From contig JAUVIS010000003.1 in NCBI GenBank assembly GCA_030592635.1, positions 1 to 46,353 on the forward strand: 46,353 nucleotides of DNA, given 5' to 3'. Position 1 is the first letter of the stretch. Each line of letters starts with the position of its first letter. The DNA is from Candidatus Fermentibacteraceae bacterium. GTDB lineage: Bacteria > Fermentibacterota > Fermentibacteria > Fermentibacterales > JCC-6. This document shows, piece after piece, positions 8,144 to 17,436 of this stretch. The position numbers and the translations under genes are program-made. The notes beneath the pieces were generated by a model. It saw only the letters and a list, made by a program, of their open reading frames with translations. It did no database searches and was not told the DNA's origin.

Positions 8144-10189
8144 ATGAAAAAACCTATATTCATTATTGCCGGTATATCCACTCTGCTTTCAATGGCACTC
8201 ACACTCAGCAGCTTTGACCAGGGGCTTGAGCATCTCACTCTGGATCTCAGGTTCAACCTTTTTCCGGATACTCATTCCGTAAATGACAGCATAATAATTA
8301 TAAGTGTGGATAACGCATCTCTGGAATCCATGGACTGGCTGGGATGGCCGTGGCCCAGGCAGATATGGTCCGACATGACAACCTTCCTCTATGATGCCGG
8401 TGTGAAAGTCGTCTACTTTGATATTACCTTTTCCACAAGTTCAACCTTCTCCGCAAGCGAAGACAGCGTATTCGGCGCAGTGGCAGGAAGCGGCAGTACA
8501 GTTTTTATCACCGGACTGGGTCACGACGAAGGCCAGCCAATACCGGAGAACGCAGTTATTAATCTTCAACTGCCACCCGGAAGAACTGCTCCATTCAGAT
8601 TTGCTTCACCCCCGGTGTCTCATATAGCGGCAGGAGCCAGTTATCTTGCTTCACCGTATGCTTTCCCCGACCCGGATGGAATGTTCAGGCAGACCCCTCT
8701 GTTTTTTCCCTCGGAAACCGGTACAGTTCCCTCACCGGCACTGGCCATAGCAATGCTCTTCAGGGATAATCATTCTGTTTCACTCGAAGATGGAACACTG
8801 CTCTGGAACAGCACCAGGATACCCCTTACAGAAGACTATGAAATGCAGGTCAGATTCGCAGGTCCGACAGGCAGCTACAGAACAATCAGCGTTGCGGATG
8901 TTTTTTCAGCAATGACCGGTGACACAACAGCTCTTCAACCGTCATCCCTGGCTGGAAAAATCGCAATGATCGGCTACACGGCATCGGATCTAATGGATCT
9001 GAAACCAATGCCCTACTCCGCCAGATGCCCCGGTGTTGAAGTAATCGCAAACACTCTTGGCAATATCCTTCAGGGCAGACATCTGGCAACTCATGGCTTG
9101 ATGACAACACTGTTTCTTACAGTTTTCCTCAGTCTTGCAGTGGCCTCAGCCCTGGTCTTCATTCCCAGGGTAATACCGGCATCGCTTACAGGATTGTCTG
9201 CAATTCTCGCCTATGCGGCAGTTTGTCTCGTCGCTTTCAACTACCGGGATCTGTGGCTCACAGCAGTGCCGCCTCTTACCTCCGGCATGCTTACTCTGCT
9301 TGGCGGTTCGGTAATCGCTTATCAGTTCGCCACAAAAGATAAAAAGTTTTTAAAAGCCGCCTTTTCACAATACCTCTCTCCCGCTATCGTATCTCTGGTG
9401 GCAAAAAACCCCGAGTTGCTGAAACTCGGCGGCGAGAAAAAAGTAATGACTGCCTTCTTCAGCGATGTAGCGGGATTTACCACCATAAGCGAACAGCTTG
9501 ATCCTCAAGATCTTGTGAAGCTTCTCAACATCTATCTTACGGAAATGACTGACATTATCCTTGAATCCGGCGGAACCGTGGACAAGTTCGAGGGAGACGC
9601 GATAATTGCCTTCTGGGGTGCTCCTGTAGAGCTTGAAGATCATGCGCTGAGGGCAGTAACCTCCGCCCTTGAATGTCAAAAGATACACAGGGAACTCAAC
9701 ACGCGACTCAAGGAAATGAATTTCCCGGCACTCAGCACAAGAATTGGTCTTGCCAGCGGCTCTATGGTAGTTGGAAACATGGGCAGCAGCAAACGGTTCG
9801 ACTACACAATGATGGGCACTGATGTAAATCTGGCAAGCCGTCTTGAGGGAGTCAACAAAGTCTATGGAACACCAATCCTCATATCGAACAGCACCCGGGA
9901 ATTCCTTCCCGCAAGTGTTATCTGCCGGGAAATTGACACTGTTATGGTTATGGGTCAGAAAACACCGGTTACCATCTGGGAACCGGTGCTGAAACTGCCG
10001 GTATTCGCAGAGCAGTACAGCAAAGCGTTGAAACTCTACAGAAACGGAAATTTCCAGTCTGCTCTGAAATTGTTCATGGAAATTCCAGAGGATCCACCAT
10101 CCGGAACCATGGCAGCAAGATGCAGAGGGTTCATCGATAAAGGAACTCCACTGAATTGGAGAGGAACCTGGGTTCTGACATCCAAGTAG
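8144..10189 (+). CDS. CHASE2-domain membrane class III adenylate cyclase
   Basis: WPWPR and PGVE CHASE2 motifs, 3 TM helices, FSDVAGFT / DKFEGDA / YTMMGTDVNLASRLE catalytic motifs (Lys/Thr indicate ATP specificity). Confidence 0.93.
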   Translation: MKKPIFIIAGISTLLSMALTLSSFDQGLEHLTLDLRFNLFPDTHSVNDSIIIISVDNASLESMDWLGWPWPRQIWSDMTTFLYDAGVKVVYFDITFSTSSTFSASEDSVFGAVAGSGSTVFITGLGHDEGQPIPENAVINLQLPPGRTAPFRFASPPVSHIAAGASYLASPYAFPDPDGMFRQTPLFFPSETGTVPSPALAIAMLFRDNHSVSLEDGTLLWNSTRIPLTEDYEMQVRFAGPTGSYRTISVADVFSAMTGDTTALQPSSLAGKIAMIGYTASDLMDLKPMPYSARCPGVEVIANTLGNILQGRHLATHGLMTTLFLTVFLSLAVASALVFIPRVIPASLTGLSAILAYAAVCLVAFNYRDLWLTAVPPLTSGMLTLLGGSVIAYQFATKDKKFLKAAFSQYLSPAIVSLVAKNPELLKLGGEKKVMTAFFSDVAGFTTISEQLDPQDLVKLLNIYLTEMTDIILESGGTVDKFEGDAIIAFWGAPVELEDHALRAVTSALECQKIHRELNTRLKEMNFPALSTRIGLASGSMVVGNMGSSKRFDYTMMGTDVNLASRLEGVNKVYGTPILISNSTREFLPASVICREIDTVMVMGQKTPVTIWEPVLKLPVFAEQYSKALKLYRNGNFQSALKLFMEIPEDPPSGTMAARCRGFIDKGTPLNWRGTWVLTSK

Positions 10190-11735: not shown

Positions 11736-12380
11736 ATGGTTCCCCACGACCCGGGCGCTTTTACTCAGGGGCTTGAAATCAGATGCGGCTTTCTCTGGGA
11801 AAGCACCGGCACTTACGGTCGATCCACATTCAGGAAAACCGATATGGAGACCGGAGAGGTTCTGGATTTACTCCGGCTTCCAGACACCGTTTTCGCGGAA
11901 GGATTTACCTTTCTGGACGACTCCACAGTATGCCTTCTAACCTGGAAAGAGCATACAGCATTCCTGCTGAATCCCTGGACAATGGAGATAGAGGATGAAT
12001 TCTATCTGAATACAGAGGGCTGGGGTATCTGCCGCACGGGTGAGTTTCTTGCACAAAGTGACGGCACAGCTGTCCTGCGTTTCAGAGACACAGGTGATTT
12101 CTCAATTCGTGATTCCATATCCGTCACCCTCAACGGCGAACCTCAGTTCTTTCTTAACGAGCTGGAATACCTTAACGGACAGATACTTGCAAATCAGTGG
12201 CGCACAGGCAGGATTCTTTTCATAAATCCGGAAAACGGTCATGTAGAGCGGGTTCTCAATCTCCGTGATGTAATTCCCCGATCCGGTGGTGTCCTTAACG
12301 GAATTGCAGCAGGTGAAGATGAAACTCTCTACTGCACAGGGAAGAACTGGCCGATTACTCTGATTCTGGATAACCTGTAG
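11736..12380 (+). CDS. Glutaminyl-peptide cyclotransferase (type I, beta-propeller)
   Basis: PHDP.AFTQGL, ESTG.YG.S, FAEG, LTWK, EGWG, LNELE, VLNGIA, TGKNW; true start probably upstream of 11736. Confidence 0.9.
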   Translation: MVPHDPGAFTQGLEIRCGFLWESTGTYGRSTFRKTDMETGEVLDLLRLPDTVFAEGFTFLDDSTVCLLTWKEHTAFLLNPWTMEIEDEFYLNTEGWGICRTGEFLAQSDGTAVLRFRDTGDFSIRDSISVTLNGEPQFFLNELEYLNGQILANQWRTGRILFINPENGHVERVLNLRDVIPRSGGVLNGIAAGEDETLYCTGKNWPITLILDNL

Positions 12381-12428
12381 GAACATCTGTATTGCTCTGC
12401 CTGATACACTATGTTATACCTTAAGTTT

Positions 12429-12440
12429 GTTTCCAGAAAC
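12429..12440. promoter_or_regulatory. Palindromic operator candidate GTTTC-CA-GAAAC
   Basis: Extends to TTGTTTC-CA-GAAACAA (12427-12442); same motif at 13588 upstream of paralog 2. Confidence 0.5.
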
Positions 12441-12480
12441 AACAATTCTGAATACATATCAGAACGAAAGGAAACTCATA

Positions 12481-13458
12481 ATGCCTAAACTACTGTTTGT
12501 TCTGCTTATCATTGCAACCGCTGCTTCAGCAAAATGGATTACCTCAACAATCGACTCCCCTGACGGAGATATATCAGGTCTCGCCTGGGGTGATGGTCAT
12601 CTGTGGGCAATGGATTCTGTTTCAGACAGCGTCTACAAGCTTGACCCGGCAACTGGCGACATTATCAGCAGTTTCTACTTCAACCATGCTGCAACAACGG
12701 TTCCTACCGGGCTTGCCTACTCCGAGAATCACAATATGGTGCTGTGCGGCGGCTGGTACATCTCCAACGGCTATGTATACAAATACTCTCCCACCGGTTC
12801 ATATCTGGGCATGGTGAACATGTGCGGCGGTTGAGGAAACCCTGTCTCGTCGGTGACGGGACTAAGCGTCAGCGGAAACTATCTCTTTCTTTCCTCCAGA
12901 TCACAGAAAAGAGTTTACCGGTACACACTTCCAGGTATAACCGGCAGACAGCTCCTTCTGTACATGCCTGCTTTCAATAAAACATGTGATATTGCCTTTA
13001 ATGCCGAAGACTCTCTTACATGGGCAGCCTCGGAAACCAGTGACCCTGCTGTCAAATGCTTTAATACTGAAAACGAAATGGTTGACTACATCAATATCAG
13101 CCTTATTCCAAATGCAAGAGGAATGACTCTTGATCCGGCGGGATTCCTCTGGATAAGCGACATTGATGCAGACAAAATTTATCAAGTCGATCTCTCTAAT
13201 GGTATCGAGGATGGCAACCAGCCCCCGGCAGGGCTGAATGTTATTCCCTCTTCAAATCCTTTCAGTGGCGCAGTTACCATTCAGGCACCGGGAATCCACG
13301 CTGAAATAACGGTGATTGATATGTATGGACGCCAGATAGAACATGACACTTTCCAGGAAAGCTGGACCTGGAATTCTTCAGCCCCGGCCGGCAACTACCT
13401 CTTTATCATCAAAGATGATCAGGGAGTATCTGCGATTCTGGACATGGTAAAGATTTAA
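12481..13458 (+). CDS. Putative secreted beta-propeller selenoprotein, paralog 1 (325 aa, CGGU, Sec118), C-terminal FlgD/T9SS-like domain
   Basis: ORFs 12481-12834 and 12853-13458 are in the same frame across TGA 12832-12834 (..MCGG*GNPVSSVTGL..); signal peptide only in the first part, sorting-like domain (NPF....I.......VIDMYGR) only in the second; SECIS-like hairpin follows. Confidence 0.8.
12844..12862 (+). promoter_or_regulatory. Bacterial SECIS-like hairpin 1
   Basis: Stem GTCTCGTC/GACGGGAC (8 bp, one G-U) with GGT loop starting 17 nt after the TGA. Confidence 0.7.
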
Positions 13459-13472
13459 CTGACTTCCCTCGG

Positions 13473-13507
13473 GAAACACCGGAGTATCTGCCCCGGTGTT
13501 TCTTTTT
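13473..13507 (+). terminator. Intrinsic terminator after paralog 1
   Basis: GAAACACCGG/CCGGTGTTTC stem followed by TTTTT. Confidence 0.85.
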
Positions 13508-13580
13508 GCGGTATTCTACATCCTTATTCCGGATTTCCGCGTTTCTGGTAACGAAGTCCCTGAAACGGGGCACACTGGCC

Positions 13581-13609
13581 TTGCCGCGTTTCTGGAAACT
13601 CTGTATCTT
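13581..13609 (+). promoter_or_regulatory. Sigma70-like promoter of paralog 2 with a palindrome in its spacer
   Basis: TTGCCG-17 nt-TATCTT; the spacer contains GTTTC-TG-GAAAC (13588-13599). Confidence 0.5.
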
Positions 13610-13661
13610 TCAAGTATCTTTCCCGCAATTGAGAATTTAATCGAATTCAAGGAGGTGCGCT

Positions 13662-14639
13662 GTGCGCAAAGTACTGCTGGTACTGCTTGTTATAGCAGCC
13701 GCAGCATCGGCCAAGGCAATAATAGCAACCCTGGATGCCCCTGATACCAACATATCCGGTCTTGCATGGGGTGAAGGTTCCCTTTGGGCTATGGATGCTG
13801 TTACTGATTATGTGTATGAACTTGATCCTGCGACAGGTGATGTGATCAACAGTTTCTACTTCGATCATATCACCACGATAGTTCCCACCGGCCTCGCCTA
13901 CTCCGAGAACCACAACATGGTTCTCTGCGGTGGCTGGTATAGTACTACCGGCTATGTTTTCAAGTACAGTCCCACCGGCTCATATCTGGGCATGGTGAAC
14001 ATGTGCGGCGGTTGAGGAAACCCTGTCTCGTCGGTGACGGGACTAAGCGCAAGCGGCAACTATGTTTTCCTCGGCTCAAGAAACCAGAATAGAGTTTACT
14101 ACTACACCCTTCCGGGAGTTAGCACAAGAAAAGACTTCACTTACATGACCGGGTTCGGTGCTACATGCGACATTGCAATGAATGCGGCAGACAGCCTTGT
14201 CTGGGTCGCTTCCGAAAATACAGGCCTGGCGGTAAAGTGCTATGATACCAACAATACAATGGTCGATTACATCAATGTGAGCCTGATACCAAACGCCAGG
14301 GGAATGGCTCTTGATCCCAGCGGCTATCTCTGGATCAGTGATATTGATGCCGACAAGATCTATCAGGTCGATCTTTCTGAAGGCATAGAGGAGGGCGATC
14401 AGGGCACTGAAGGATTCTCCGTTGTCCCCTCCGCCAACCCCTTCAGCGGTGCTGTTACATTCCAGGCACCCGGCGTGAATGCAACTGTTACCGTATTCGA
14501 TATGTATGGCCGTCAGGTTGAAAACGACAACTTCCAGGAATCCTGGACATGGAACTCTTCCGCCCCTGCGGGAAGCTACATATTCGTCATCACAGATGAT
14601 CAGGGAGAGTCAACAACCCTTGAATTGATGAAGATCTAG
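13662..14639 (+). CDS. Putative secreted beta-propeller selenoprotein, paralog 2 (325 aa, CGGU, Sec118), C-terminal FlgD/T9SS-like domain
   Basis: ORFs 13662-14015 and 14034-14639 are in frame across TGA 14013-14015; AAGGAGG RBS and GTG start; colinear with paralog 1. Confidence 0.8.
14025..14043 (+). promoter_or_regulatory. Bacterial SECIS-like hairpin 2
   Basis: Identical to hairpin 1 at the same spacing from the TGA. Confidence 0.7.
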
Positions 14640-14657
14640 ACGGTTTCAAAACACAAT

Positions 14658-14687
14658 GAAAACCCGGAGTTCAATCTCCGGGTTTTC
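14658..14687 (+). terminator. Intrinsic terminator after paralog 2
   Basis: GAAAACCCGGAG-TTCAAT-CTCCGGGTTTTC perfect 12-bp stem. Confidence 0.85.
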
Positions 14688-14734
14688 TATTGACAAACCT
14701 TAACAGGATTCCGATATTACCGCCTCGGCGCAGT

Positions 14735-14810
14735 GCCTCGATAGCTCAGTTGGCAGAGCGGGTGGCTGTTAACCACTAGGTCGGAGGTTCAAGTCCTCCT
14801 CGAGGCGCCA
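14735..14810 (+). tRNA. tRNA-Asn(GTT)
   Basis: 76-nt cloverleaf: acceptor GCCTCGA/TCGAGGC, D arm GCTC/GAGC, anticodon loop CT-GTT-AA, T loop TTCAAGT, encoded CCA; TTGACA at 14690 upstream. Confidence 0.97.
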
Positions 14811-14839
14811 AAGCCCCTTGACTTGTTTCAGGGGGCTTT
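14811..14839 (+). terminator. Hairpin/terminator after the tRNA
   Basis: AAGCCCCTTGA...TCAGGGGGCTTT inverted repeat. Confidence 0.7.
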
Positions 14840-14980
14840 CATTCAGCAACCGCAAAAGCTCTGAAACTCTCTTGTTTTTCCAAATAATTAGAATAAGAGC
14901 TACTTTGGGGAAATGAAATCGATGCCTTTTTCCTTCCTCAGTGACAGCAGGTGGGTTTTCATACTTCATGGAGCATTTTT

Positions 14981-16011: not shown

Positions 16012-17436
16012 CTACAACTTCACTACCATGGTCGTAGCAATTGCTCCCGCGCATGAACCACTAATGTTGTAGCCACCCGCAGGAAGTTCATTGCCTTCAG
16101 AGTCACAACCATCCCAGAGAAAAGTATTACCACTGCTGCTGGAAATAGTCCTGACAATTCGCCCTGAAAAATCGTAGACCTCCAGTTGAGCTGGTACAAC
16201 AACTCCCTGAACGGCGATAGTTACGCTCTCAGAAAAAGGATTAGCAGAACTCTGAAGAACAAAAGGGTCAGTGTCAACAGGGGATGTACTTGATTCCTCA
16301 ACCTCGACCCAGTCGTGGTCGAACCAGCCCATGACTATCCAGTACCCGCTGACTTCTACATCTCCCTGGCTCCAGATAGCAAAAACATCACCATCATCAT
16401 TCGTAGCAGCTTCAAGACTGGCAATCTGCTGAACTTCCTCATCACTGTAGTCATAGGCTGCGTATGGTTCTTCAATGAAGTTGCCATTCTTATCTATTAT
16501 GGCAAAATAGACATAGTGATCACTCTGGAAATAAGCCAGCCACATCAGGTACAGAGTGTCTCCATCAGGTCCAGGGAGAATATTCATATACCAAGCACCA
16601 AGATTGGGCATCTCAACCTCTTTTATAACCAGTACATCACCAGTTTCAGAATCAACCTTGACTAAAGAAAGAACACTATAGGGGATTCCTTCTCTCGAAT
16701 AATAAAAGAAACACCAAAAATTGCCATCAACATCGACAGTAACAGATGTAGTCGGACGAAAGAAATCAAGTCCCTGAACCAGTTCAACAGGTGGTATCAC
16801 GATGTTACCTTCAAGATCATACTGAATGTAGGCGGGAAGAGCAAAACCGGCAAGGTAAACCACATGCACCCTGTTACCATCAACACAGATATTTGAGATA
16901 TCATCCAGGCTACCTGGAACTGTGTCTCTGAATACCTCACCAACTCCAGGCTCGAACACTGCGTAGCAGACCCCACCGGAAATCTCAAAGGAAGCATGTA
17001 TACGCCCAAGACTGTCACTGGAAGCTTCCACTCTTGGGCGACTCACATAGGAATCGGGGATCAGAAGGCTGGTGGGTACAAGTTCTGCACCAGAGCTGTC
17101 CCGAATAGTGTGCCAGGCGGGAGCCCCTTCTCTCCAGAACAAAGCAACACTATCCTCATTCACCAAACAGCTGGTGGTATAGCCTGACCATACCTGATTG
17201 GAAATCATAGTCTCCGGAAAAATAACTGTGCCGTCTGAGAGATAAACCTTGTAACCTACCCTTGTCTCCTGATTGAGATATCCCCATACCTGATGCAGCG
17301 TGTCAGTACCTGTAACTTGAATGGATTTGTGCTGCTGGCTGCTGTATGACCAAAGATCCTCAGTGATTATAGGATCGCTCCACCCTGGGGCATGGGTCAT
17401 CAGAAACAAGCCGGACAAAATCATCGACGGTAACAT
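16012..17436 (-). CDS. Secreted protein with C-terminal FlgD/T9SS-like domain
   Basis: Hydrophobic N-terminus, beta-rich repeats, ANPFSE.V.I.......LEVYDFSGRIVRT......WDG.D..G..LPAG.Y. Confidence 0.75.
   Translation of the reverse strand: MLPSMILSGLFLMTHAPGWSDPIITEDLWSYSSQQHKSIQVTGTDTLHQVWGYLNQETRVGYKVYLSDGTVIFPETMISNQVWSGYTTSCLVNEDSVALFWREGAPAWHTIRDSSGAELVPTSLLIPDSYVSRPRVEASSDSLGRIHASFEISGGVCYAVFEPGVGEVFRDTVPGSLDDISNICVDGNRVHVVYLAGFALPAYIQYDLEGNIVIPPVELVQGLDFFRPTTSVTVDVDGNFWCFFYYSREGIPYSVLSLVKVDSETGDVLVIKEVEMPNLGAWYMNILPGPDGDTLYLMWLAYFQSDHYVYFAIIDKNGNFIEEPYAAYDYSDEEVQQIASLEAATNDDGDVFAIWSQGDVEVSGYWIVMGWFDHDWVEVEESSTSPVDTDPFVLQSSANPFSESVTIAVQGVVVPAQLEVYDFSGRIVRTISSSSGNTFLWDGCDSEGNELPAGGYNISGSCAGAIATTMVVKL

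Follow-up and report, generated by a model that had tools for sequence, protein, structure and literature searches.

A candidate in-frame SECIS hairpin and a probable conversion tract in the 70-nt identity shared by tandem propeller genes of a Fermentibacterota genome

The prototype of the bacterial SECIS element is that of E. coli fdhF. Selenoproteins in which selenocysteine (Sec) forms a redox pair with cysteine include the CxxU and UxxC families with the thioredoxin fold, and animal thioredoxin reductase with its GCUG end. The bSECIS model, as summarised in a 2026 review (PMC13188914), allows an apical loop of 3–9 nt and an upper stem of 4–16 bp (Fig. 2 legend of that paper), with a G at the first or second position of the loop that is usually followed by G or U, a distance of 16–37 nt from the UGA to the apical loop, and a minimum free energy (MFE) of −7.5 kcal/mol or lower. 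The same summary states that nearly all selenoproteins have homologues in a Cys form (PMC13188914).

Here we analyse a pair of tandem genes, A and B, in a stretch of 46,353 nt (hereafter the window) of contig JAUVIS010000003.1 from a Candidatus Fermentibacteraceae bacterium (assembly GCA_030592635.1). The features are listed in Table 1. An earlier note on this DNA had recorded a 70-nt block shared by the two genes around an in-frame TGA, and the identity of positions 12799–12868 with 13980–14049 is indeed exact, covering 70 of 70 nt and nucleotides 319–388 of both genes. Over their full length the genes share 71.4% of nucleotides and 72% of amino acids, and the longest identical run besides the 70-mer is 14 nt. 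The synonymous differences that the note described as frequent elsewhere are found at 103 of 198 degenerate codons for identical residues outside codons 107–129, compared with 0 of 20 inside. The repeat is not an artefact of assembly, because in four sequencing runs of one study, one of them possibly the source sample, the 70-mer assembles as a unitig of its own whose depth is roughly 2.4-fold that of the flanking sequence (52.8 vs. ~21), and because a 430-nt contig from another run covers the entire B copy of the block with its B-specific flanks and zero differences; the public contigs used for this check of depth and span are DNA, and the list of public runs included no RNA data set with this sequence. 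We consider it likely that the block has two causes, an RNA-constrained 3′ core and a 5′ conversion tract, with the UGA at codon 118 read as Sec.

Table 1. Coordinates of the tandem genes, the shared block and the predicted recoding signals (positions in the window).
Feature	Position	Strand	Description	Basis
Glutamine cyclotransferase gene, directly 5′ of gene A	11736..12380	+		Pfam PF05096, E = 1.1e-63
Gene A	12481..13458	+	325 codons; ATG 12481, TAA 13456-13458	ORFs and translation
Gene A product			putative N-terminal signal peptide, NHL-like beta-propeller and C-terminal beta-sandwich of T9SS sorting type	
5′ part of identical block, gene A	12799..12828	+	codons 107-116, S-Y-L-G-M-V-N-M-C-G; variable in the family; probable conversion tract	
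Near-invariant block across the close family	12829..12863	+	GGT TGA GGn AAy CCT GTC TCG TCG GTG ACG GGA yT	
In-frame UGA, gene A codon 118	12832..12834	+	putative Sec in C115-G-G-U118-G-N-P	
SECIS hairpin (predicted), gene A	12844..12862	+	stem 12844-12851 / 12855-12862, loop GGU 12852-12854	fold, synonymous invariance, covariation
Gene B, paralogue of gene A	13662..14639	+	325 codons; GTG 13662 after AGGAGG, TAG 14637-14639	
5′ part of identical block, gene B	13980..14009	+	7/30 positions differ from the B copy in the sister genome	
In-frame UGA, gene B codon 118	14013..14015	+		
SECIS hairpin (predicted), gene B	14025..14043	+	same sequence as the gene A hairpin	

The in-frame TGA is a constant feature of the family. 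All 31 close copies, which come from 27 related loci and the window and comprise 23 different 138-nt segments, contain it, and wherever the 5′ end of the gene is complete (28 copies) it follows exactly 117 codons. The propeller family itself occurs in all 70 Fermentibacterota genomes searched. Among the phylum matches listed, 149 of 150 contain the TGA, and the lone exception spans residues 211–325 only; among diverse loci that were fetched, the TGA is at the homologous position in 60 of 60. A cysteine accompanies it in every subfamily, either three residues away (C-G-G-U) or, in sister subfamilies, directly beside it (C-U). As an ordinary stop codon, TGA ends 499 of the 1054 long open frames in the genome. 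An AlphaFold model of the gene A product with a mean pLDDT of 81.6 has a propeller at residues 19–237 and a sandwich at residues 255–325. The UGA would thus lie within the propeller, and in this model the protein domain is continuous across it. A signal-peptide-like N-terminus lies before the UGA and a predicted secretion tail after it.

With respect to the nature of the host protein, Pfam DUF6923 (cut-off 27 bits) gives 26.3 bits for gene A and 27.5 bits for gene B. Both genes are modelled with the C-terminal beta-sandwich; for the sorting domain of T9SS type A cargo (TIGR04183 / PF18962), TIGR04183 (cut-off 23) gives 29.2 bits in gene B and 19.3 bits in gene A; the Pfam family Por_Secre_tail matches gene A at 17.1 bits, below its cut-off. 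The N-terminus of gene A, judged by sequence alone, consists of M-P-K, a hydrophobic run and A-S-A-K. A SprA homologue is encoded on contig C167 (402 bits summed, cut-off 200). The PorP family had no match in the genome, and the control of that search was likewise without a match anywhere. Structural comparison by Foldseek retrieved NHL domains, YncE, PorZ and the bacterial glutaminyl cyclase 3mbr, the last with a TM of 0.76 over the target and an rmsd of 3.0. A kinship of A and B with the adjacent glutamine cyclotransferase was considered and rejected, as a profile comparison gave it a probability of 0.4%. No Cys-form homologue was found among the best 150 of 3780 representative matches; in six distant homologues without the TGA, the CxxU loop is missing altogether. 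The column aligned with Sec holds a Cys in one of 27 spanning domains, which belongs to an unrelated distant repeat protein.

The core of the block reads GGU-UGA, 9 nt, GUCUCGUC-GGU-GACGGGAC, and its stem of 8 pairs includes one U-G. The arms, the GGU loop and the distance of 17 nt from the UGA to the loop are as the earlier note gave them. Compared with the bSECIS model as summarised above, the gene A hairpin agrees in all four structural criteria (a 3-nt loop on an 8-bp stem, a GG start of the loop, 17 nt of spacing, and an MFE of −13.0 kcal/mol), and it has the expected placement inside the open reading frame, immediately 3′ of an in-frame UGA. The loop of 3 nt is at the lower limit of the model. 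Single-sequence folding energy is only marginally better than expected by chance: the UGA with the following 34 nt has a z-score of −1.98 at the MFE given above, with 5 of 200 shuffled sequences folding as well, and folding of a 75-nt stretch is not unusual (z = −0.03). For this reason the argument for a SECIS element is based on comparison between sequences and not on energy. A scan of 12400–14900 against Rfam, with E up to 10, returned no match to a SECIS family, only a tRNA-Asn and chance matches.

Positions 12829–12863, approximately 35 nt, are practically invariant in all 23 distinct close homologues, synonymous sites included. In all 21 distinct full-length homologues the same codon is used at G117 and at each position from P121 to G127, whereas outside codons 117–127 a single codon is used in only 5 of 104 columns with an invariant residue, and in none of the 62 with fourfold or higher degeneracy (p = 1e-7 by Fisher’s exact test for the difference in codon fixation). 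The nucleotides of the hairpin are identical among genomes that share only 59–72% of residues, and where contigs from other members of the community align to the window, they do so solely across 12819/12820–12863. In more divergent subfamilies, 60 distant TGA-bearing loci provided 45 distinct hairpins, in which 97.2% of cells are paired and 6 of the 8 stem pairs are altered on both sides. The covariation score of 0.569 compares with at most 0.157 in slid registers and is reached in none of 500 shuffles; the alignment was anchored on detected hairpins and is therefore biased towards structure. With the hairpins of selD and of FG-GAP and BNR genes added, all 8 pairs change on both sides and the score rises to 0.909. 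Neither G of the loop varies in any of the aligned hairpins (45 of 45 and 35 of 35). The checks that the earlier note had proposed, of covariation and of synonymous sites in homologues, thus reveal a helix kept by compensation and frozen synonymous sites, and RNA-level selection on the codon before the UGA, the UGA and the hairpin is strongly supported by these sequence comparisons.

The 3′ arm of the hairpin encodes V-T-G-L, which is conserved in TGA-free homologues too, and conservation of this arm is therefore partly at the level of the protein. A covariance model built from 35 hairpins found four matches in the genome with E < 0.05, all after an in-frame TGA, along with three weaker matches not behind a TGA; the model provides no independent validation because the four matches are members of its training set. 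The hairpins on C71 and C108 were not recovered by this search with its first-look filter.

The genome encodes much of the machinery for Sec. The genes selA (496 bits) and selB (322 bits, with domains SelB-wing_2 and SelB-wing_3) adjoin each other on contig C55, and a tRNA-Sec is present (70.4 bits, Rfam). An intact selD was not found in the assembly, which is 89% complete; what it contains of the gene is a 5′ piece on C71, which breaks off 43 codons past its own UGA. In a search of relatives, SelD was above the cut-off in 19 of 21 genomes, this genome counted, and nearly all selD genes of the relatives contain a UGA of their own and a hairpin of the same type. A weak match to TIGR00476 on C115 proved to be a ThiL-type kinase and not SelD. 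In the relatives and in the C71 fragment, selD has GGU-UGA, 22 nt to the loop, and the stem-loop CCCGGCA-GGU-UGUCGGG. The comparison with hairpins after other Sec codons, also proposed in the note, gave a positive answer: hairpins of this type also stand after the Sec codon in selD, FG-GAP and BNR genes of the lineage, and versions of the latter two with in-frame TGA and hairpin are present in this genome as well. The spacing between UGA and loop is 17 nt in the gene A hairpin, 20 nt in other subfamilies, 22 nt in selD, 23 nt in FG-GAP and 33 nt in BNR genes. Several other candidates were discarded. Matches to Fdh-alpha on C89 are without a stop and below the cut-off, and four candidates from a scan for in-frame TGA (C91:48484, C205:426, C167 and C3:18296) are apparently non-coding or on the wrong strand. 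One more locus from the same scan, C171:11885 (A-N-P-U-S-C), is kept as a possible case, with no clean hairpin on folding. GrdA had no match in the genome, and the control of that search had none anywhere.

The earlier note had attributed the identity to RNA-level selection and had named local gene conversion as an alternative. The two explanations each hold for one part of the block. Fixed synonymous sites and compensatory changes speak for RNA-level selection at 12829–12863, but at 12799–12828 there is free variation among orthologues; conversion fits these 5′ 30 nt, where a run of matches coincides with a sister pair that differs, and does not fit the GGU-UGA and the hairpin. At codons 107–116 the 21 distinct orthologues differ from one another in amino acid as well as in codon choice, and the A and B paralogues of the sister genome differ at 7 of 30 positions over the tract, yet retain the TGA and the hairpin, so that selection on RNA does not appear to explain the 5′ 30 nt. 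The longest run of A/B matches at polymorphic sites is 24 sites, which none of 10,000 permutations reached (p < 1e-4), compared with 10 sites in the pair of the sister genome (p = 0.49), and 0 of 8 degenerate codons differ within codons 107–116, compared with 52% elsewhere (p = 0.003). When limited to the sites that distinguish the sister paralogues, the test yielded a run of 7 (p = 0.008), a result that is weak when taken alone because the reciprocal comparison also gives a run of 7, just upstream. Gene A is identical between the two genomes across the tract, and is unusually similar between them. The residues of the tract are typical of B-type orthologues too, two of which (L014 and L017) share most of S-Y-L-G-M-V/I-N, and the B copy of the sister genome looks derived at 2–3 of the 7 differing sites; some of the identity may thus be inherited from an ancestral sequence. 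On balance we lean towards a short gene conversion between A and B as the cause of identity in these 30 nt.

Two simpler accounts of the block assign all of it to one cause. RNA-level selection could keep the whole 70 nt, through an extended lower helix or an upstream recoding context and without any conversion. This is consistent with the MFE fold of the 75-nt stretch, in which bases just 5′ of the UGA pair with bases 3′ of the hairpin, and with the GGU before the UGA, which is fixed; the base just before the UGA is a U in nearly all members of the family and in the selD, FG-GAP and BNR genes, and some upstream context therefore seems to be selected. However, only the last upstream codon is fixed, and the variation of codons 107–116 among orthologues and the sister paralogues that differ there while keeping TGA and hairpin make this account unlikely. 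The opposite account, in which the block is a conversion tract alone and the hairpin is incidental, could draw on the significant run of A/B matches, but is contradicted by the comparative data, because conversion within one genome cannot yield identical hairpins in genomes that share so few residues, nor compensatory changes in 60 distant loci. We give it hardly any credence.

The other alternatives concern the reading of the UGA. If the TGA were a true stop, there would be two genes (117 and 201 amino acids) or a pseudogene, and the hairpin would act in pausing or re-initiation. Public databases do hold the C-terminal part as separate proteins of 197–201 residues in 36 of 39 matches, and the GTG at 12853 could serve as a start codon for the downstream frame. 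But the two frames never differ in phase, the TGA always being preceded by exactly 117 codons, the predicted propeller continues across it, the downstream piece would carry a secretion tail without a signal peptide, and the arrangement is kept in 70 genomes with several paralogues each, unlike a pseudogene; a true stop is consequently very improbable. We regard as equally improbable that the UGA is read through with Trp, Cys, Gly or Arg by a near-cognate tRNA stimulated by the hairpin. The incomplete selD and the absence of a Cys-form homologue as a Sec/Cys anchor would fit such readthrough, whereas against it stand selA, selB with its SECIS-binding wings and the tRNA-Sec, the selD of 19 of 21 genomes, nearly all with their own UGA and hairpin of this type, and the position of the UGA three residues from or beside a conserved Cys in every subfamily, as in redox selenoproteins.

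Taken together, the sequence evidence leads us to conclude that the hairpin is very probably a bacterial SECIS and that the UGA at codon 118 is read as Sec. In the scenario that we propose, A and B lie in tandem and encode two paralogous copies of a secreted propeller protein specific to Fermentibacterota. SelB carrying Sec-tRNA(Sec) would bind the GGU apical loop while the ribosome is on the UGA and deliver Sec, giving a product of 325 residues with a Cys115-x-x-Sec118 pair on a propeller loop; both the Sec insertion and the SelB binding are what we infer from the comparisons above. The ~35 nt would be frozen in the close family because the SECIS lies inside the reading frame. The 5′ 30 nt (12799–12828 and 13980–14009) would have been homogenised by a short conversion between A and B, and the frozen SECIS, as a stretch of perfect homology, may have seeded it.

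If this is correct, recognition of the SECIS rejoins genes that are annotated as “hypothetical” or “T9SS sorting domain” proteins of 117 and 201 residues, and restores a family that none of the Fermentibacterota genomes searched lacks and that often has several copies per genome. No earlier description of a propeller selenoprotein family was found in literature on Fermentibacteria/Hyd24-12 and selenium or on T9SS and selenoproteins, although supplementary catalogue tables may list such families. The main text of PMC13188914, as distinct from any supplementary tables, makes no mention of propeller, secreted, NHL, FG-GAP, repeat, periplasm, cell surface or glutaminyl. Export to the surface and the absence of a Cys-form homologue in our search are each, to our knowledge, unusual among bacterial selenoproteins.

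These results lead us to speculate, tentatively and with slightly less than even confidence, that Fermentibacterota keep their Sec machinery largely for surface or secreted propellers that are multi-copy and spread through the phylum, namely NHL-like (C-x-x-U or C-U), FG-GAP (U-C) and BNR types, none of which was found in a Cys-only version, and thus for an extracellular selenium chemistry that is apparently missing from current catalogues of selenoproteins. Sec beside Cys on a propeller loop could then represent a surface selenenylsulfide redox site or a metal/chalcogen-capture site of anaerobes, and the family would be a test case for the role of selenium outside the cytoplasm of these organisms. 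The block would also be a clean example of an RNA signal in a coding region that freezes synonymous sites and may seed recombination between paralogues; an in-frame SECIS, frozen at the DNA level, could serve as a homology anchor that promotes conversion among them.

In comparison with known systems, the hairpin resembles the bacterial SECIS in being an in-frame stem-loop directly 3′ of a Sec-UGA with a small apical loop that starts with G, and differs in that the loop is a minimal 3 nt, GGU (GGC in some members), with no bulged U evident. With the selD element of its own lineage it shares the GGU before the UGA, a stem of 7–8 bp and the GGU triloop, whereas the stem sequence is unrelated and the spacing is different; presumably one SelB reads both. 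The fold of the protein is like that of the NHL, YncE and glutaminyl-cyclase propellers, with sequence identity of only 9–15%, and in alignments the Sec loop corresponds to the G-x-G-x-G-N-G loop of NHL-type repeats; the tail of gene B matches TIGR04183, as in T9SS cargo proteins. We know of no selenoprotein among these propellers or among T9SS cargo. Unlike the thioredoxin-fold selenoproteins with a Cys–Sec redox pair, the protein is a predicted beta-propeller, putatively exported, for which no Cys-form homologue was found in our search. What it has in common with them is a Sec near a conserved Cys (C-G-G-U, or C-U in sister subfamilies), and this analogy suggests that the two residues form a selenenylsulfide or a metal-binding pair.

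The 70-nt identity between the tandem paralogues A and B that an earlier note had described is exact (12799–12868 and 13980–14049), with both copies at nucleotides 319–388 of their genes. Overall, the two genes share 71.4% of their DNA sequence and 72% of their protein sequence, and the longest identical run apart from the block is 14 nt. Synonymous differences are indeed frequent elsewhere, with 103 of 198 degenerate codons for identical residues differing outside codons 107–129 compared to 0 of 20 inside. Raw assemblies bear the repeat out: in one run, possibly the source sample, the 70-mer appears among the contigs as a separate unitig with a depth of 52.8 compared to ~21 in its flanks, and a second run from that study has one 430-nt contig with B-specific flanks that spans the B copy without any difference.

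Coordinates of the in-frame TGA genes and of neighbouring features (C numbers, contigs of the source assembly; L numbers, fetched loci; U, selenocysteine)
Feature	Location	Strand	Remarks
Gene A	window 12481–13458	+	325 codons; in-frame TGA at codon 118
Gene B	window 13662–14639	+	325 codons; in-frame TGA at codon 118
Hairpin in gene A	window 12844–12862		GUCUCGUC-GGU-GACGGGAC; UGA-to-loop spacing 17 nt
Glutamine cyclotransferase gene	window 11736–12380		directly upstream of gene A
tRNA-Asn (GTT)	window 14735–14810		just 3′ of gene B
474-residue protein	window 16012–17436	−	C-terminus matches tail region of family profile; without in-frame TGA
C25 paralogue	C25 6189–6596		C-L-C-U-G-F-Y; cut by contig end; hairpin of same type
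C182 paralogue	C182 640–1419		L-D-C-U-G-S-D; hairpin of same type
selD 5′ fragment	C71 about 9057–9521 (L041 1058–1522)		own UGA and GGU-loop hairpin
FG-GAP propeller, T9SS tail	C48 5202–6413 (L040 503–1714)	−	404 residues; TGA in L-P-S-G-U-C, then UCCGCA-GGU-UGCGGA
BNR/Sortilin-type propeller, T9SS tail	C108 1–1476 (L042)		TGA in E-G-S-G-U-G-N; CAGACGGA-GGU-UCCGUCUG 33 nt downstream
Partial copy of the BNR propeller	C45 2323–2820		96% identical
222-codon frame	C171 11789–12454 (L043 790–1455)		signal-peptide-like start; in-frame TGA in A-N-P-U-S-C

The earlier note had preferred RNA-level selection for recoding as the explanation of the block and had offered local gene conversion as the alternative. 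Selection explains the core but not the 5′ 30 nt of the block; conversion probably applies to this 5′ flank and not to the core, which is kept across the family. When 21 distinct full-length family members are aligned by codon, G117 (GGT), P121, V122, S123, S124, V125, T126 and G127 are each encoded by one codon in all 21 sequences. Outside codons 117–127, a single codon is used in 5 of 104 degenerate columns with an invariant residue and in none of the 62 columns with fourfold or higher degeneracy (p = 1e-7 by Fisher’s exact test), and the expected conservation of synonymous sites is thereby borne out for the hairpin codons. The frozen stretch covers approximately 12829–12863, and contigs of other organisms in the community share only 12819/12820–12863 with the window. 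The sole stem change in the close family is a C to U substitution in locus L022, which turns a G-C pair into G-U. Each of the 31 copies (23 distinct 138-nt segments) in 27 related loci and the window carries its TGA at the position marked * in C-G-G-*-G-N-P-V-S-S-V-T-G-L-S, preceded by exactly 117 codons in all 28 copies with a complete 5′ end.

The 5′ flank presents a different picture. Codons 107–116, the 30 nt ahead of the frozen stretch, vary in both residue and codon among orthologues, and in the closest genome (locus L012) 7 of these 30 positions are not shared between the A and B copies, the residue changes including L to I, V to I and N to D. In a GENECONV-style permutation test on 603 polymorphic sites, the longest matching run between A and B of the window is 24 sites, a length reached by 0 of 10,000 permutations, compared to 10 sites (p = 0.49) between A and B of L012 and 20 sites (p = 0.001) between B of the window and A of L012. 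None of the 8 degenerate codons for identical residues in 107–116 differ, compared to 52% elsewhere (p = 0.003). The 5′ 30 nt are thus probably a short tract of gene conversion next to the SECIS, and the frozen SECIS may supply the perfect homology for conversion. Against conversion, most residues of the tract are common to the B-type orthologues at L014 and L017, so that part of the identity may be retained ancestry, and a restricted test yields only p = 0.008. Moreover, the tract in A is identical in both genomes yet looks typical of B, which makes the direction of transfer ambiguous. It also weighs against conversion that gene A, compared over window 12503–13402, is 93–99% identical to its L012 counterpart as opposed to 70–91% for the flanking genes and gene B, which suggests that gene A was recently exchanged between lineages.

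RNA-level selection on the core is further supported by covariation, another check proposed in the earlier note. All 60 more distant family members fetched for this purpose contain the in-frame TGA, and 56 of them have a GG-N triloop, placed in the same codon phase, that is closed by a contiguous stem of at least 5 pairs; the remaining four have a stem mismatch, beside the loop in three and four pairs from it in L067. The peptide context varies by subfamily (C-G-G-U-G-N-P, Y-C-U-G-G, D-C-U-G-S-D, L-C-U-S-S-P) and the stems vary along with it, for example ACCAGUC/GACUGGU, CUCUGGUC/GACCGGAG and GACCAGAA/UUCUGGUC. Across 45 distinct hairpins 97.2% of cells are paired and 6 of 8 pairs have changed on both sides; the covariation score of 0.569, from an alignment that is anchored on the detected loop and therefore leans towards structure, compares to at most 0.157 in slid registers and was reached by 0 of 500 shuffles. 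The 3′ arm also codes for V-[TS]-G, which is conserved in TGA-free homologues too, and the compensating changes fall mostly at synonymous positions of this arm (e.g., GGA vs GGU pairing with U vs A).

The hairpin itself is present as described, although folding energy gave a mixed result: the UGA plus 34 nt folds marginally better than shuffles (MFE −13.0 kcal/mol, z = −1.98, 5 of 200 shuffles as good), and a 75-nt stretch no better (z = −0.03). The bacterial SECIS model in the Figure 2 legend of PMC13188914 has a loop of 3–9 nt with a G within its first two positions, a stem of 4–16 bp, a spacing of 16–37 nt and an MFE at or below −7.5. The A/B hairpin lies within all four structural criteria of that legend and is predicted to be a mechanistically ordinary bacterial SECIS. 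Almost all Sec codons examined (window 12829–12834; L041, L111–L129, L049–L108) follow a GGU or UGU codon, which places a U before the UGA, and the base 3′ of the UGA is mostly G, a pattern that may reflect a context effect on recoding.

Comparison with other Sec codons agrees with this assignment. A scan of the genome for in-frame TGA followed by a GGU-loop hairpin found four further genes: the selD fragment, the FG-GAP and BNR propellers, and the C25 paralogue. The selD fragment reads GGU-UGA with CCCGGCA-GGU-UGUCGGG at a spacing of 22 nt, and three relatives carry the hairpin in a full selD gene, once with a GGC loop. In a search of relatives, source genome included, the TGA is present in 38 of 43 FG-GAP matches listed (the other 5 are partial pieces short of the site) and in 20 of 21 BNR matches listed. 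The FG-GAP stem covaries (CCGCA/UGCGG vs CCACA/UGUGG), and with the selD, FG-GAP and BNR hairpins added to the alignment, pairing is 96.1%, all 8 pairs are compensatory and the score is 0.909. The 222-codon frame on C171 has neither a clean hairpin nor a Pfam match.

The source assembly (2.35 Mb, 89% complete), in which the window is contig C225, encodes recoding machinery. On C55, selA (496 bits) adjoins selB (322 bits), whose 626-residue product has SelB-wing_2 and SelB-wing_3 domains, and C100 carries a 97-nt tRNA-Sec (70.4 bits, Rfam RF01852). An intact selD was not found in the assembly at this completeness; a weak match on C115 was rejected as ThiL-like. Only the 5′ end of selD (A-A-C-A-G-U-A-G-K-M-A-P) is present on C71, ending 43 codons past its own UGA where a minus-strand glycosyltransferase frame starts, which reflects either misassembly or real truncation. 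In the relatives search, selD is above the cut-off in 19 of 21 genomes, a count that takes in the source genome, itself below the cut-off, and nearly all have one in-frame TGA. TGA is also the commonest ordinary stop in the source genome, ending 499 of 1054 long open frames, so that decoding, if it occurs, has to be specific to the site.

What makes the case interesting is the host family: probable propeller selenoproteins, predicted to be exported, that occur in all of the phylum's genomes searched and are split in public annotation. A word-indexed protein search yielded 39 matches, from Candidatus Sabulitectum and Fermentibacteria records, with no full-length close relative among them; 36 are proteins of 197–201 residues beginning just past the TGA, indicating that public gene calls split the gene. 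By profile search the family is present in each of the 70 phylum genomes examined, with several copies per genome. The TGA is present in 149 of the 150 matches listed of a longer set (a further 202 are not among them), the exception being a C-terminal piece, residues 211–325. Four TGA-bearing members occur in the source genome (A, B, C25 and C182). No description of the family was found in the searched literature, nor does the main text of a 2026 review (PMC13188914) describe it.

Against the T9SS type A sorting domain, the tail scores above the cut-off in gene B (29.2 bits) and below it in gene A (19.3 bits), and the source genome has a SprA homologue. The 474-residue protein encoded near the pair is probably another T9SS cargo. 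A Cys lies three residues ahead of the Sec and is directly adjacent in sister subfamilies, which suggests a selenenylsulfide or metal-binding pair. Among the best 150 of 3780 matches from an exhaustive representative search, the C-x-x-U loop is wholly missing from full-length TGA-free relatives (24–34% identity). In 27 domains that span the site, Cys occupies the Sec column once, in a distant repeat protein. No Sec/Cys pair was found in these comparisons, and its absence is unusual.

An AlphaFold model based on the 21-sequence alignment (mean pLDDT 81.6) predicts an all-beta propeller at 19–237 and a beta-sandwich at 255–325, with the UGA within an inter-strand loop (114–124) in mid-propeller. 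No sequence relation was detected between the propeller and the neighbouring glutamine cyclotransferase, although Foldseek finds its most compact matches in glutaminyl cyclases of bacteria and plants (3mbr, TM 0.76 on target, rmsd 3.0), ahead of NHL domains, YncE and PorZ. The Sec loop lines up with the G-x-G-x-G-N-G loop that NHL-type repeats have.
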